A DNA stretch of 11,101 nt, taken from the IMG/VR virus record IMGVR_UViG_2663763286_000016, positions 1 through 11,101 of that record, one strand, 5' to 3'. The notes below the pieces were generated by a model. The model was not told the origin of the DNA, searched no databases, and was given only the letters and a program-made list of their open reading frames with translations. Within the stretch, counting starts at the first letter, position 1; every line of letters begins with the position of its first letter. The DNA is from a virus (taxonomy: Duplodnaviria > Heunggongvirae > Uroviricota > Caudoviricetes). Shown piece after piece: positions 1,492-9,444 of this stretch. A program made the translations under genes and the position numbers.

Positions 1492-1531
1492 ACTCACCAC
1501 CAAGGCTTTCCACGACCATAAGGGTGGTGAG
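1492..1531. promoter_or_regulatory. 9-bp perfect inverted repeat (CTCACCACC ... GGTGGTGAG, 22-bp spacer) just upstream of the Rha start
   Basis: Read directly from the sequence at 1492-1500 and 1523-1531. Function as operator or RNA hairpin is unknown. Confidence 0.3.
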
Positions 1532-1630
1532 ACGTACAGGGGTGGAAATACCGGTGACTACCGAAACCGGCCAGCCTTTCGGCTGCCCTGCACGCCCCAC
1601 CATAATCTGAATGTGGCTGTGCATTACGCA

Positions 1631-1655
1631 TAAAAAAACCGCATGAGCGCGGTTA
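1631..1655 (-). terminator. Rho-independent terminator for leftward transcription
   Basis: On the minus strand: AACCGC-GCTCAT-GCGGTT hairpin (5-6 bp GC-rich stem) followed by a run of seven T (plus-strand A run 1632-1638). Lies between the pL-like operon and the Rha gene. Confidence 0.6.
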
Positions 1656-2297
1656 TGCGCAGTAGTCATCATCGGGTTTCCACGCCCGGCACCCGCTTTA
1701 TGAGGTGCAGGTGCACTATAATTCCACCCGTTCTGGTTTTCAATAGCTACATTCAACATTTTCTCTTACCCTTCATCACCGAAGTGAACTTTGTTGATGC
1801 AGTGCCTGGTGCCTCCAGGTGACGTTAACCAGTTAACAATTAACGCCGGATACAGAGAATCCACCCATAACACTGTTTTTGGTTTTAACTGTTCCGCGTG
1901 CGCTGAGCCGCATTCACCGCATCACAAAATTCACTTTAAAAAGGGCGGACATCAGTTCATGGGCAAACAGATGCCGCCAAACGTCACCAGAAAATTGATA
2001 ACAGAGGGCGTTGCAGCGGGGTTGTCACTTAAGCGTATGGTCAACCTGACAACCCGGTGTCCTCAACGGGGAAGGAATAACCCCGCCATACTTACCGCCG
2101 CGCCATTTCGCGGAGTGCCACAACCGGAAGCGCACGGTCGACGAAAATTTAACGACAGGCTATCTATGAACCAGCTACCTCGCCGTGCGCTTTCGCGTTA
2201 TGGTCTGACTTTTCAGGGAAATATCCTTTCAGTAAACTGTCAGTGCCGGATGCTTACCCGTGTCCGGCGCACGCACTCTACCTCACCCGTGAATAAA

Positions 2298-5986: not shown

Positions 5987-7018
5987 ATGTCTATTAATCC
6001 TAAACTTAAGCGTATCGCGCGACGCTATCCAGCGTTATTCCAATATGAGTCCCCCTATATGGCAAGAAAATTAATAATATTCGGCAACGGTCTCGGTATG
6101 GCTTTAGATCCTGCTCACTTCTCCTTAGACAGAGCGTTGGAAGAAATTTGGCATCGCCCCAATTTTTTAAAAGATATCCACAAGCAACTTATCGAGCGTT
6201 GTCTTCAGCGGCAAGGTCCACCAGAAGGAGAACATGAGTTGGATACCCTTCACCAGGCTGTCACATATTGTAAAGCTCTTGCTCAAATTGGAGAGGGGAA
6301 CGTGCATTGGCTTACTGACGATGGACTAAACTTCCCCAAAATTACCGCCACTTATATTCACAAAGTTGCAACCAGGTTGCATAATTACGATAAAGGTTTG
6401 CCACAAAGATTCGAAAATGCGCTTGTGGAGTTTGTAAAGAACACACACTCACATATCGCGACATTAAACTATGACAAATTATTATACAATTCATTCATAG
6501 ATAATGATATATTCAACGGGTATGATGGGGTTTTAGTTGATGGGATGCTAAGCCACGGATTTTCCTCTGCAGCGCTCGAACGGAAATACAATCGTAGGTT
6601 TGGTTATTATTTGCACTTGCATGGTTCACCACTATTTATTAATCAGCATGAAAATGTTTTAAAACTTTCACGCTCACAACTTACTCTTGACATAGATGAA
6701 CCTAGTGAGCATATAGTGTTAACTCATATAAAAAGAAAACCGTCAGTTATAGCAGCATCTAATGTTCTTTCTACGTACTGGGATTATTTGCAGTTTGCAT
6801 TATTTGAATCAGAAGAAATAATATTGTTTGGTTACTCTGGTCTCGATATTCACCTTAACCTGCTTATTCGACCTTACCTAACCTCTAAGCCTTTAAGAGT
6901 AATTGAGTGGAGCGGTGCTGGTGAACAAAACGCTCGTGAGATATATTGGAAAAACCAGTTGAGACGGGAAGTTACTGTAATTAGGTTGGATAACATCACT
7001 GATTTTATTGATTGGTAG
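5987..7018 (+). CDS. SIR2-like protein (SIR2_2 / defence-type sirtuin fold), 343 aa; candidate NAD-consuming defence effector
   Basis: Glycine-rich N-terminal motif LIIFGNGLGMAL, TLNYD motif (residues 159-163), HLHGS (210-214) and a C-terminal LFGYSGLD motif, matching the spacing and residues of SIR2_2-family domains as in ThsA/DSR proteins (from memory). The gene looks markedly AT-rich. Start uncertain: 5987 or the in-frame ATG at 6059. Confidence 0.65.
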   Translation: MSINPKLKRIARRYPALFQYESPYMARKLIIFGNGLGMALDPAHFSLDRALEEIWHRPNFLKDIHKQLIERCLQRQGPPEGEHELDTLHQAVTYCKALAQIGEGNVHWLTDDGLNFPKITATYIHKVATRLHNYDKGLPQRFENALVEFVKNTHSHIATLNYDKLLYNSFIDNDIFNGYDGVLVDGMLSHGFSSAALERKYNRRFGYYLHLHGSPLFINQHENVLKLSRSQLTLDIDEPSEHIVLTHIKRKPSVIAASNVLSTYWDYLQFALFESEEIILFGYSGLDIHLNLLIRPYLTSKPLRVIEWSGAGEQNAREIYWKNQLRREVTVIRLDNITDFIDW

Positions 7019-7088
7019 CGCAATGCGAAGTTAAAGAGGCAGCCTCATATTTATCAGAGCTGGTGTACGTCCAATACAGGAGGTTATC

Positions 7089-7178
7089 GTGCTGGTTCTC
7101 AAATGCGCGCTGGCTATTGCGGCTGTAGTGGCAATTTATTGTCTTGCTATTGTTCTTATGGATCGCCTTTCTGATTGA
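7089..7178 (+). CDS. Small hydrophobic peptide (29 aa, single predicted transmembrane helix)
   Basis: GTG at 7089 preceded by CAGGAGG with a 5-nt spacer. Hand translation VLVLKCALAIAAVVAIYCLAIVLMDRLSD, stop TGA at 7176-7178. Lies 70 bp downstream of the SIR2-like gene on the same strand. Not in the ORF track (too short). Confidence 0.45.
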   Translation: MLVLKCALAIAAVVAIYCLAIVLMDRLSD

Positions 7179-7279
7179 TTTTATATTGGCGAGGTGACGG
7201 GAGTTAAGTAGAATTGCTGCGGGTGCTTGAGGCTATCTGCCTCAGGCATGAACACCAAAAGGCAGATAGAGAAAAGCCC

Positions 7280-7342
7280 CAGTTAACATTACGCGTCCTG
7301 CAAGACGCTTAACATTAATCTGAGGCCATATCTATGCGACAC
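7280..7342 (-). ncRNA. Putative Sok-like antisense RNA (hypothetical; extent approximate)
   Basis: Candidate minus-strand promoter: TTGACC (plus 7376..7371), 16-bp spacer, GCTAAT (plus 7354..7349). This would start an antisense transcript covering the start of the short leader ORF, as in hok/sok loci. No clear terminator was identified. Confidence 0.2.
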
Positions 7343-7393
7343 ATAGAGATTAGCCTCTTACGGACCAAAAGGTCAAGGAGAAGCAGGCTATGA
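7334..7393 (+). CDS. Short leader ORF (19 aa) coupled to hok; mok-like by position
   Basis: ATG at 7334 sits inside a hairpin (TCTATG cgaca CATAGA). The TGA at 7391-7393 overlaps the hok ATG at 7390-7392. Confidence 0.3.
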   Translation: MRHIEISLLRTKRSRRSRL

Positions 7394-7545
7394 AGCAGCA
7401 AAAGGCGATGTTAATCGCCCTGATCGTCATCTGTTTAACCGTCATAGTGACGGCACTGGTAACGAGGAAAGACCTCTGCGAGGTACGAATCCGAACCGGC
7501 CAGACGGAGGTCGCTGTCTTCACAGCTTACGAACCTGAGGAGTAA
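7390..7545 (+). CDS. hokD: Hok/Gef-family type I toxin, 51 aa (matches HokD/RelF as remembered)
   Basis: Hand translation MKQQKAMLIALIVICLTVIVTALVTRKDLCEVRIRTGQTEVAVFTAYEPEE. AAGGAG 9 nt upstream. Upstream leader is rich in long-range complementary segments. Confidence 0.88.
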   Translation: MKQQKAMLIALIVICLTVIVTALVTRKDLCEVRIRTGQTEVAVFTAYEPEE

Positions 7546-7614
7546 GAGACCCGGCGGGGGAGTAATCTCCCGCCACCTCTGATGTGCCAGGCATCCTCAA
7601 CGCACCCGCACTTA

Positions 7615-7635
7615 ACCCGCTTCGGCGGGTTTTTG
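7615..7635 (+). terminator. Rho-independent terminator after hok
   Basis: CCCGC-TTCG-GCGGG hairpin followed by TTTTT. The identical 20-mer recurs at 9449. Confidence 0.7.
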
Positions 7636-7645
7636 CATTGTCTGG

Positions 7646-7674
7646 TTGACAAAAATAGAAAAATGCGAAAATAT
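7646..7674 (+). promoter_or_regulatory. Candidate promoter for the 216-aa / HTH-ImmA module
   Basis: Perfect -35 TTGACA at 7646-7651; the -10 is imperfect (AAATAT at 17 bp or TATGTG at 20 bp). Sits immediately after the first terminator copy. Confidence 0.35.
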
Positions 7675-7709
7675 GTGGTTTACGAATTCTAAAAAAAGCG
7701 AAACTTGAA

Positions 7710-8360
7710 ATGAATGAAAATCAGTTAGCTCCTTGTTGGGAATTTCAACCTTATCTTGCTGAAAACTATGTTCGCCACTTGTTGGCGGAGATCGCTAACG
7801 TACTTGAGCAGCTGTACTATCATAAGCACGCATTAGACAGCAACTGGTCTGAAGGTGTAAGGGCTTATGATTGGGTCAGAAATCATCTTATTCAAAATGA
7901 AGATGCAATTCCTGGCCTTGAGATGATTTCCAAGGGGTTGGACTATGTAGTTGCTTTAAATAAAGTTCCGCTACAATTTACCAAAGATTGCATTAATAAC
8001 CCCAAAAAGAAACATCGTCTGCGTCGAAATAAAGTAGAGTATGAGCAGCTCTCATTGTTTGGTGATGTTGAGGCTGAGCAAGATATTACATGGCGAGTCA
8101 TAGCTGAGCCTTTTTTATCCGAAGAGGGCGATGGTGAATTAGAGTCCACACTGCCTCGTTGGGAGGTAGCTCTTGTTGGATTTAATACTTATGGTGCTCA
8201 GATTAGTATAGTTTCTCATCAATCTACAGCATCGATGCCGCTTATGCCTCTTGATTATAACACACTCCCTGACGAAGCGGAGATTAATAAGGTGCCTCTT
8301 CGTCGGCGTACGAAGGATAAAGATTTGGATGTGAGCAGTGATGGAACATCAGGTGAATAA
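7710..8360 (+). CDS. Hypothetical protein, 216 aa, first gene of a two-gene module; contains a QLSLF pentapeptide
   Basis: ORF track 7710..8360. No family recognised. Residues 113-117 are QLSLF, flanked by a basic run (NPKKKHRLRRNK) and an acidic run. The 3' end overlaps the start of the next gene. Confidence 0.65.
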   Translation: MNENQLAPCWEFQPYLAENYVRHLLAEIANVLEQLYYHKHALDSNWSEGVRAYDWVRNHLIQNEDAIPGLEMISKGLDYVVALNKVPLQFTKDCINNPKKKHRLRRNKVEYEQLSLFGDVEAEQDITWRVIAEPFLSEEGDGELESTLPRWEVALVGFNTYGAQISIVSHQSTASMPLMPLDYNTLPDEAEINKVPLRRRTKDKDLDVSSDGTSGE

Positions 8361-9444
8361 CTTCACTGAGTATCGGGGTGATAAGCTCAAACTAGCGAGA
8401 ATGGCTGTTGGGCTTTCTTGTGAAGAGTTAGCCGAAAAAATTGGCAAGACAAAGCAATTCGTTAGCAAACTGGAGAAGGGGTGCAGGCCATCGGAGCAAT
8501 GTCTTGAGTTAATATCTTCAGCGCTTATGATTAAGTCCAGTTTTCTTTTTACTGAACGAAAATACGCTCTGGAAAGTGATGTCTGCCATTTTCGGAGTAA
8601 GAAGTCCAGGACTCAAACGCTGACTAATAGTGTATTGGCCAGGGCTGAGATTCTTAATATTATAATTTCTGCTGTTGAAGGTGAAATCGAATTTCCTGAC
8701 GTTAACATACCGGAGCACCCAGGGGCTGAATTACTTACTCCGAATGATATTGAGCGAGTGGCAGAAGATTGTCGCCGTGCCTGGAATTTAGGTCTTGGCC
8801 CTATATCATCAATGGTTAAATTGGCGGAGAGTTTAGGGGTAATCGTTGCGCATGTTACGGGAGTCGATGATCGTGTTGATGCTTTTACTGTTCACAATAA
8901 CAGGCCTGTTATCATCAGGAACAATGTTAAAAAAAGCATATGTAGATTTCGCTCTGATTTAGGTCATGAATTAGGGCATTTAGTAATGCATGAGGGCATA
9001 ACGACAGGTGATAAACTTACGGAATCACAAGCCGATCACTTTTCGAGCGCCTTATTAGTTCCCAGGTTATCTTTCATTAAAGAATTTCCACGAATACGAG
9101 GTAAGCAATTCGACTGGAATGCTCTGGTTGAATTTAAACTTAGATGGAAAATCAGCCTTAAAATGTGTATTTATCGAGCCAGCGCATTAGGCTTATTGAC
9201 CCAGGAACAGGCAAGAACTGGCTATATGCATCTTAATTCCAGAGGGTATACGAGAGTTGAACCTGGTGATGAACTTTTGCGCCCTGAAGAACCCGGCATG
9301 CTGGCCGAGGCGATTGAAATGCTGGATGATGCAACCTGGCTAAGAATTCTTATGAAAACTGGCTTGAGCCAAGATTTAATTCGTGAGTTGTTCTCCATCA
9401 ACAGACCTATTACAAATCCAAGAAATATTTTCCAGATTGTTTGA
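8341..9444 (+). CDS. Fusion of XRE-family HTH and ImmA/IrrE-type zinc metallopeptidase (COG2856-like), about 367 aa
   Basis: N-terminal HTH (LKLARMAVGLSCEELAEKIGKTKQFVSKLEKG) and an HEXXH motif (HELGH, residues 210-214, around nt 8965-8979). ATG at 8341; the track start at 8338 is GTG. Confidence 0.8.
   Translation: MEHQVNNFTEYRGDKLKLARMAVGLSCEELAEKIGKTKQFVSKLEKGCRPSEQCLELISSALMIKSSFLFTERKYALESDVCHFRSKKSRTQTLTNSVLARAEILNIIISAVEGEIEFPDVNIPEHPGAELLTPNDIERVAEDCRRAWNLGLGPISSMVKLAESLGVIVAHVTGVDDRVDAFTVHNNRPVIIRNNVKKSICRFRSDLGHELGHLVMHEGITTGDKLTESQADHFSSALLVPRLSFIKEFPRIRGKQFDWNALVEFKLRWKISLKMCIYRASALGLLTQEQARTGYMHLNSRGYTRVEPGDELLRPEEPGMLAEAIEMLDDATWLRILMKTGLSQDLIRELFSINRPITNPRNIFQIV

Follow-up and report, generated by a model that had tools for sequence, protein, structure and literature searches.

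Positions 7186-7635 of the window, by which we mean the entire 11,101-nt stretch of DNA analyzed, carry a small toxin gene that is preceded by a structured leader with a short ORF of its own and faced, on the opposite strand, by a putative antisense RNA gene (Table 1). The product of the toxin gene, MKQQKAMLIALIVICLTVIVTALVTRKDLCEVRIRTGQTEVAVFTAYEPEE, is a hydrophobic peptide of 51 aa that matched the Pfam family HOK_GEF (PF01848) with 82.9 bits against a cut-off of 22, and PHROG 251 ("MokW-like host killing") at 2.8e-33. A previous sequence-only reading of this DNA had recognized the toxin as HokD/RelF. Indeed, the protein is identical to K-12 HokD, and one RefSeq accession (WP_000813254.1, HokD) is common to a strain with 99.8% identity and a K-12-type strain. 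Overexpressed hok coding sequences are generally toxic (10.1101/2025.08.07.668861). RefSeq annotation at the locus is restricted to the toxin and covers neither the leader ORF nor the putative antisense RNA gene. Flanking the locus are a SIR2-like gene (5987-7018) and RosmerTA-like genes (RmrT, 4.6e-25; RmrA, 6.2e-105), and a 29-aa ORF at 7089-7178 had no match in PHROGs or Pfam. PADLOC contains no Hok model, so a search with it was uninformative on Hok.

Table 1. Features placed at the hok/sok-type locus, in window coordinates.
Feature	Position	Strand	Basis or remark
hok mRNA promoter, TTGGCG (7186-7191), 17-nt spacer, TAGAAT (7209-7214)	7186-7214	+	consensus scan, 9/12 matches
tac (translational activator element), GGGUGCUUGAGG, at the predicted hok mRNA 5′ end	7221-7232	+	predicted to pair with fbi (full-length) and with ucb (truncated fold)
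Stem, CUAUCUGCCU (7233-7242) with AGGCAGAUAG (7260-7269); 9-mer pair of the sequence-only reading	7233-7269	+	in all folds
tac partner in local 5′ hairpin, UGCUUGAGGC (7224-7233) with GCCUCAGGCA (7239-7248)	7239-7248	+	inverted repeat, 90% complementary
Predicted Sok-like RNA, ~75-80 nt, both ends approximate	7266-7343	-	~13-nt single-stranded 5′ tail, ~20-bp hairpin, then CUUUUCUCU
ucb / anti-SD, AAGCCCC	7274-7280	+	predicted to hide leader SD (full-length fold) and to pair with tac (truncated fold)
GCGUC/GACGC hairpin, arms 7293-7297 and 7304-7308	7293-7308	both	tip of leader stem-loop and of Sok terminator hairpin
Leader (mok-like) ORF Shine-Dalgarno, GAGG, 8 nt before ATG	7322-7325	+	invariant in 58 homologues
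Antisense target hairpin, outer SD/dcb stem GAGGC with GCCUC, inner stem 7331-7336 with 7342-7347, loop CGACA	7322-7357	+	truncated fold
Leader ORF (mok equivalent), 19 codons, ATG at 7334, TGA at 7391-7393	7334-7393	+	translation MRHIEISLLRTKRSRRSRL
Sok-like promoter, -35 TTGACC (7376->7371), 18-nt spacer, -10 TAATCT (7352->7347)	7347-7376	-	sequence reading and hokW alignment
dcb, GCCUC	7353-7357	+	truncated fold
hok Shine-Dalgarno, AGGAG	7376-7380	+	9 nt upstream of hok; K-12 hokD homology begins here
hok toxin gene (HokD, 51 aa)	7390-7545	+	Pfam HOK_GEF, PHROG 251, RefSeq identity
3′ UTR stem-loop, GGCGGGGGA/UCUCCCGCC	7553-7574	+	predicted folds, strong covariation
fbi (fold-back inhibitory element), CCUCAACGCACCC(GCA)	7595-7607, extendable to 7610	+	MFE fold; complementary to mRNA 5′ end
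hok mRNA intrinsic terminator	7614-7635 (or to 7631)	+	terminator scan: 7-bp stem, 5 GC pairs, then T run

The -10 region of the hok promoter (GTTAAGTAGAAT) is kept in hokW and in phage Evi, and a transcript start ~7 nt downstream of it would fit the 5′ end of an Rfam match at 7221. This match, between the leader (7221-7392) and RF01794 ("sok"), reached 107.5 bits, where the gathering score is 59 (E = 3e-24), and spanned the model from end to end (1-157 of 157). Since it runs in the hok sense and stops at the hok AUG, the model describes the mRNA leader, with Sok encoded on the opposite strand; a reading of the match as a plus-strand sRNA was rejected on the same grounds. Using the element definitions of Le Rhun et al. 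(2022; PMC9841398), we could place every regulatory element of the R1 system in the locus, namely tac, fbi, ucb, the mok SD, dcb, the Sok promoter and terminator, and the 3′ stem-loop. In addition, tac has a nearby complementary segment with which it could form a local 5′ hairpin, a candidate for the metastable structure of the nascent transcript by analogy with R1. On the same analogy, the 3′ UTR stem-loop would be the hairpin expected to protect the 3′ end of the mRNA after processing (PMC9841398).

The features described in the sequence-only reading all lie within 7200-7635, with two coordinates off. It had reported a pair of complementary 9-mers, of which CTATCTGCC is found at 7233-7241 as claimed, whereas its partner GGCAGATAG occupies 7261-7269 rather than 7262-7270. 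The GCGTC/GACGC hairpin that it placed at 7306-7321 likewise exists, but its arms are those given in Table 1. A hairpin enclosing the leader ATG was described correctly and has inverted-repeat arms at 7328-7336 and 7342-7350. In the cmscan alignment the GCGUC/GACGC hairpin shows as 16 inserted nt that the Rfam consensus lacks; it occurs in 33 of 58 aligned homologues and is always paired where present. The stem formed around the 9-mer pair is also well preserved, with 93.3% of cells paired over the 58 homologues and three pairs changed on both sides.

Folding predictions suggest that these elements form a switch. The full-length RNA of 415 nt (7221-7635) had an MFE of -170.3 kcal/mol, compared to -124.3 +/- 6.3 kcal/mol for shuffled sequences (z = -7.25), and 0 of 100 shuffles folded as well. 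Two perfect 9-mer inverted repeats were seen where 0.09 would be expected by chance. In the full-length fold, the 5′ end (7221-7232) pairs with 7595-7607 near the 3′ end, a tac/fbi interaction that includes a perfect 9-mer (TGCGGGTGC with GCACCCGCA), the leader SD is taken up by GCCCC of ucb, and the hok SD pairs with CUCUU (7355-7359). When shortened to 7221-7585, the RNA refolds: GGG.UGCUU pairs with AAGCCCC (tac/ucb), and the leader SD exchanges its ucb partner for dcb, GAGGC with GCCUC, around the leader ATG. This predicted exchange matches the published R1 model, in which tac/fbi closes the full-length RNA while ucb hides the mok SD, and 3′ trimming leads to tac/ucb and SD/dcb pairing (PMC9841398).

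Comparative data lend support to the full-length fold. Loci with relatives of HokD were fetched from IMG/VR (80) and from genomes (53), and an alignment was made of 58 full-length loci, with redundancy removed, that come from Escherichia, Shigella, Kluyvera, Photorhabdus and Pantoea, among others. When the full-length fold was mapped onto these homologues, 89.7% of cells were standard pairs, as opposed to 38-43% with partners slid, and 44 pairs were changed on both sides, as opposed to 28.8 +/- 2.4 in shuffles and 15-28 with partners slid. Compensatory changes were present in 4 of the 14 pairs of the tac/fbi helix (UA in 43 sequences, CG in 11), in the helix on the ucb side (AU 46 / GC 12; AU 32 / GC 23) and in the 3′ stem-loop (AU 27 / GC 27). 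The outer stem of the target hairpin is invariant and 100% paired in the 58 sequences, and its inner stem is paired in just 65% across the homologues. Since the tac/ucb and SD/dcb columns never vary, covariation is uninformative there; these columns are compatible with the model and do not support it independently.

On the minus strand, the sequence-only reading had suspected a promoter opposite the leader that could produce a Sok-like antisense RNA. A promoter-like site, TTGACC-18-TAATCT, was indeed found at the position homologous to the sokW promoter mutated by Takada et al. (PMC8621323), together with a 20-bp hairpin and U tract that are also homologous to the sokW elements. A consensus scan of 7000-7750, which did find the hok promoter and terminator, missed this site because its weak -10 agrees with the consensus at only 3 of 6 positions and its spacer is 18 nt long; the site was therefore placed by homology instead. 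Its -10 aligns with that of hokW (TTGCCT-17-TAACCT), with TTGACC and an 18-nt spacer in the window versus TTGCCT and a 17-nt spacer in hokW. The minus strand from ~7342 to ~7262 folds at -32 to -33 kcal/mol into the shape of a Sok RNA. Judging from the promoter, transcription of the antisense RNA from the window allele would begin near 7340-7343, close to the 7342 guessed previously. The best support for this start comes by analogy from the tools used for sokW: primers YO-421/422, which mutated the sokW -10, change TAGGTTAG, a segment that aligns with window 7345-7352, and the sokW probe YO-592, which gave a northern signal from the homologous region of Sp5, corresponds to window 7313-7342 (PMC8621323).

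The sequence-only reading had also stated that K-12 hokD lies behind relBE and lacks mok and sok, and it had suggested that the window might hold a more complete module. Both points are borne out by alignment. K-12-type genomes, in which the identical toxin is encoded in the Qin prophage, align with the window only from position 7376 onward, with relE directly upstream. Over 7376-7635, a stretch that starts with the hok SD and takes in fbi and the terminator, the two loci are 98.5% identical, but in K-12 relBE replaces the leader, and relE ends 71 nt before hokD. It follows from this alignment that K-12 hokD keeps the toxin, fbi and the terminator without the elements upstream, i.e., without the promoter, tac, ucb, the leader ORF, the target hairpin and the Sok gene, all of which could be placed in the window. 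The relBE-hokD arrangement, with relBE adjoining and no leader, is thus absent from the window, where the leader is full. The truncated derivative is K-12 hokD, and it is the window that has the complete form, as evidenced by the full-length RF01794 match, the element-by-element alignment with related loci, and the folds that reproduce the published switch.

The complete form is the norm in E. coli. At least 80% of 7180-7660 was found in 3926 of 5426 complete E. coli genomes, at a median of two places per genome, and also in 110 phage records, mostly of lambdoid/Stx phages, and on plasmids. In all, hokD-like places in complete E. coli genomes number ~11,000. Three short contigs labeled Acinetobacter, Xanthomonas and a MAG (L100, L105, and L138) have E. 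coli-like sequence and are probably contamination, so no conclusions on host range were drawn from them. The interpretation put forward in the sequence-only reading is therefore supported, for a type of locus that has already been described and is common, which makes this locus an ordinary one whose significance is small beyond annotation. In a wider sense, the locus shows that K-12 hokD, the copy known from textbooks, is a remnant left by truncation, and that in E. coli prophages a hokD-type hok/sok module is usually complete.

The closest studied relative is hokW-sokW of the Stx2 prophage Sp5 (phage 933W), with 92.6% nucleotide identity over window 7201-7617. The two have in common the promoter, tac, ucb, SD, leader ATG, dcb, the position of the Sok promoter, the hok SD and fbi. 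hokW-sokW is also located on a lambdoid prophage, although its position in the prophage and its neighboring genes differ. Further differences are found at the C-terminus of the toxin (...FTAYEPEE in the window, ...FVDYESEK in HokW) and in the target loop, which is CGACA (5 nt) in the window and CUGAACA in hokW. In the experiments of Takada et al. (2021), HokW was toxic, sokW driven by its own promoter neutralized it, and mutation of the sokW -10 abolished this protection (PMC8621323). Following mitomycin C treatment, sokW RNA vanishes and HokW appears in a RecA-dependent manner, and deletion of hokW-sokW halves the release of Sp5 (PMC8621323). HokW and R1 Hok share 44% identity (PMC8621323).

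The hok/sok (parB) locus of R1, a plasmid locus rather than a prophage one, has the same architecture and the same predicted folding switch (tac/fbi, ucb/SD, tac/ucb, SD/dcb) as the window, as well as 19 leader codons upstream of the hok start, the same placement of the antisense promoter, and a 3′ protective hairpin. An R1-type IncFII plasmid locus aligns with the window element by element, as does hokW-sokW, and an R1-type IncFII plasmid that encodes an identical Hok has a 57-nt leader spacing. The 16-nt hairpin inserted into the Sok terminator stem distinguishes the window from R1. Chromosomal loci of the hokC/mokC (gef) type belong to the same family and share the conserved leader ATG. Loci L097-L104 of our set, which we take to be of the hokC type, have toxins 80-82% identical to that of the window and align over the whole leader. 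The leader of hokC-type loci is only ~70% identical to that of the window and lacks the 16-nt insertion, and the loci occupy positions in the core chromosome, not in a prophage.

The relationship between the leader ORF and hok deserves closer consideration. The short leader ORF noted in the sequence-only reading was recovered with 19 codons, its TGA overlapping the hok ATG as ATGA. By comparison, in hokW 57 nt separate the leader ATG from that of hok, with which it is in frame, and in 933W-type records the annotated "MokW" is a 70-aa in-frame extension that shares its stop with HokW; such an extension is not formed by the window leader, where the spacing is 56 nt. In R1 the spacing is 58 nt (derived from positions 116-118 and 174-176; PMC9841398), and mok, unlike the window leader, runs for 70 codons and overlaps hok in another frame. 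Of the 130 fetched loci that were classifiable, 122 keep an upstream ATG with a GAGG SD. The distance between this ATG and that of hok is 56-58 nt in every case, and the frame is open to the hok start in all three spacing classes. The 57-nt spacing, in frame with hok, accounts for 100 of these 122, the 58-nt spacing with a long overlapping frame as in R1 for eight, and the 56-nt spacing for 14, proportions that are indicative only because the sample is biased toward loci with identical HokD. (L126 and L133-L137, in which the protein match does not start at the hok ATG, were left out of the frame counts.) Twelve of the 56-nt loci are near-identical to the window; the others are hokC-type loci of Escherichia ruysiae and E. 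whittamii, where a 56-nt, ATGA-terminated leader has arisen independently.

It is conceivable that the 19-codon ORF is incidental, with ribosomes entering hok directly at its own SD after the RNA has refolded, and the antisense RNA acting through RNase III-mediated decay alone. The peptide sequence of the leader is not conserved between frame classes, and a good SD (AGGAG) precedes hok by 9 nt. Yet all predicted folds have the hok SD paired, the leader start, its SD and the open frame are preserved as described above, and in R1 no Hok is synthesized when the mok start codon is mutated or a stop comes early (PMC9841398, section 18), which together make direct initiation highly improbable. In R1, mok has to be translated up to the hok start region, that is, over its first 19 codons, and not beyond (PMC9841398, section 18); a 19-codon leader that ends at the hok ATG should therefore suffice. 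The spacing survey provides natural support for the R1 mutational result that only the first ~19 mok codons matter, and it may aid the automatic annotation of Mok.

A second explanation accepts the ORF as a former mok and regards the locus as a structurally intact but functionally silent relic, in which the 56-nt spacing is a frameshift that breaks an in-frame or overlapping mok and Hok stays below harmful levels. Relative to the 933W type, the window leader has indeed lost 2 nt by deletion from the target loop and gained 1 nt (GGTCAAGG), and since the in-frame arrangement prevails among the surveyed loci, the window allele represents a derived minority. In addition, several chromosomal hok loci have been reported to be silent in this way, and in earlier work, summarized in a preprint, rifampicin failed to activate chromosomal hokA, hokB and hokC (10.1101/2025.08.07.668861). 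On the other hand, a 55-nt segment diagnostic of the window allele was found in 803 of 5426 E. coli genomes, and the allele is near-unchanged in these and in 11 IMG/VR contigs, indicating a stable allele and not a one-off lesion; E. coli 2013C-4465, for example, carries it at 99.8% identity. The 56-nt spacing has also arisen a second time, in E. ruysiae and E. whittamii, the regulatory elements and the toxin ORF are all intact, the stop falls exactly on the hok ATG, as expected for coupling by termination and restart, and translation past the hok start is dispensable in R1. Taken together, these observations render a silent relic quite unlikely.

The deletion leaves the target loop of the window without the U of the hokW and R1 loops, and a shortened loop of this kind could affect antisense recognition. 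Loss of the YUNR U-turn motif was considered as a claim and retained as a caveat only, because the commonest 57-nt allele (loop CUCUACACA) also has no clean YUNR. We consider it unlikely that the spacings of 56, 57, and 58 nt represent functionally distinct designs instead of neutral variants. If they did, the 56-nt leader would be a minimal upstream ORF of 19 codons ending in AUGA, working purely by termination and restart and yielding no extended Hok isoform; the 57-nt leader would give an in-frame, N-terminally extended Hok, and the 58-nt leader an R1-like overlapping mok. The shortened loop would in that case change antisense binding and the killing threshold.

Sequence homology, the placement of the elements, the alternative folds predicted for the mRNA, and covariation were all observed for this locus, and on these grounds 7186-7635 is very probably an intact type I toxin-antitoxin locus in the hok/sok family, belonging to the hokD/hokW lineage, that functions as an R1-like module. 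The complete module sits in the early region of a lambdoid prophage. For the window allele we infer that both RNAs are transcribed, that the mRNA is processed at its 3′ end, that leader and hok are translationally coupled, and that Hok is toxic and the module has a biological role; these parts would fit together as follows. A constitutive promoter would drive a hok mRNA of ~415 nt (7221 to ~7635), locked in an inactive state by tac/fbi pairing, with ucb hiding the Shine-Dalgarno sequence of the 19-codon leader ORF. Slow trimming from the 3′ end would remove fbi, upon which the RNA would refold into the tac/ucb stem and a hairpin that presents the leader start region. As long as the short, unstable antisense RNA (minus strand, ~7340-7343 to ~7266) is made, it would pair with this region, block translation of the leader, and trigger decay of the mRNA. 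Upon loss of the antisense RNA, the leader would be translated. Ribosomes moving through it would melt the hairpin in which the hok SD is buried, stop at the UGA of the AUGA overlap, and reinitiate on hok, whose product would then damage the inner membrane.

By analogy with hokW-sokW, such a module may serve in lysis and phage release on induction, in retention of the prophage, or in both. It speaks against the R1-like reading that, according to a summary in a preprint, the chromosomal hok loci tested earlier gave no post-segregational killing (10.1101/2025.08.07.668861). Another possibility is that the module is mainly an abortive-infection or defence element located in a prophage defence hotspot, and not one for prophage retention or phage release. 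The SIR2-like and RosmerTA-like neighbors (RmrT, RmrA) make a defence role possible, relBE fills the same slot in K-12, and hok/sok of R1 reportedly lowers the plating of T4, a result cited in PMC8621323. However, a survey observed no enrichment of hok near defence systems (10.1101/2025.08.07.668861). We regard defence as the main function as unlikely. The only direct data in this lineage, those on hokW-sokW, suggest by analogy that the window module would help phage release on induction, as its relative does for Sp5 (PMC8621323).

With a SIR2-like gene and a RosmerTA-like pair on either side of hok, and K-12 carrying relBE in the corresponding slot, this part of the prophage resembles a hotspot for variable cargo or defence genes. 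The SIR2-like gene lies directly 5′ of the hok locus in the position that is occupied by relBE in K-12, and its product also gave weak PADLOC matches to SIR2 and PDC-S21. The first two genes 3′ of hok match the RosmerTA components RmrT and RmrA, and the RmrA-like product contains HTH_3 and Peptidase_M78 domains. In RefSeq, these two genes are named "hypothetical" and "helix-turn-helix domain-containing," respectively.

Features of the hok locus, its surroundings and the plasmid comparator (window positions unless an accession is given)
Feature	Position	Strand	Details
C4 antisense RNA	1520-1607	-	Rfam, 79.3 bits
isrK	1632-1708	-	Rfam, 63.6 bits
SIR2-like protein gene	5987-7018	+	343 aa; Pfam SIR2_2, 26.1 bits (barely over the Pfam cut-off)
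29-aa ORF, MLVLKCALAIAAVVAIYCLAIVLMDRLSD	7089-7178	+	GTG start, AGGAGG ahead of start
Inverted repeat I3	7191-7203 with 7567-7579		13 nt, 92% complementary
Inverted repeat I5	7196-7209 with 7610-7623		14 nt, 79% complementary
Tyr46 codon TAC of hokD, inside GCTTACGAA	7525-7527		UACG context
RmrT-like gene	7710-8360	+	PADLOC RosmerTA component RmrT, 4.6e-25
RmrA-like gene	8338-9444	+	PADLOC RosmerTA component RmrA, 6.2e-105
hok locus L139 of an IncFII plasmid	NZ_CP128973.1, 344-559		Hok identical to R1 Hok

A short ORF that stops 8 nt short of the hok -35 element encodes a very hydrophobic product of 29 aa, which may be a small membrane protein. Pfam and PHROGs searches with this product returned no match, and RefSeq carries no annotation for the ORF in the near-identical strain E. 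coli 2013C-4465. Its 3′ end is kept in the aligned phage Evi. Annotation is likewise "none" for the leader and Sok segment (7326-7380) in every listed E. coli RefSeq genome, meaning that the antisense RNA gene and leader ORF of a very common hok locus are unannotated. At the L139 locus, a truncated 33-aa Hok is the sole RefSeq annotation. The leader there is in frame with hok and yields a 71-aa product, with a leader-to-hok spacing of 57 nt vs. 58 nt in published R1.

In inverted repeats I3 and I5, the hok promoter spacer is complementary to the 3′ UTR. Their 5′ arms lie between the -35 and -10 elements, ahead of the point at which transcription is expected to begin. The spacer sequence concerned was not conserved in the alignment with hokW. 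The complementarity could be due to chance, or it could be of relevance for read-through transcripts. Within the toxin gene, the UACG motif at Tyr46 is intact; according to the Hok survey preprint (10.1101/2025.08.07.668861), A-to-I editing of hokC, hokD, and hokE mRNAs recodes this position to Cys46. Elsewhere in the window, the C4 antisense RNA and isrK matches adjoin each other, and the pair lies just upstream of a dicB homologue once positions are shifted to match those in the near-identical strain.
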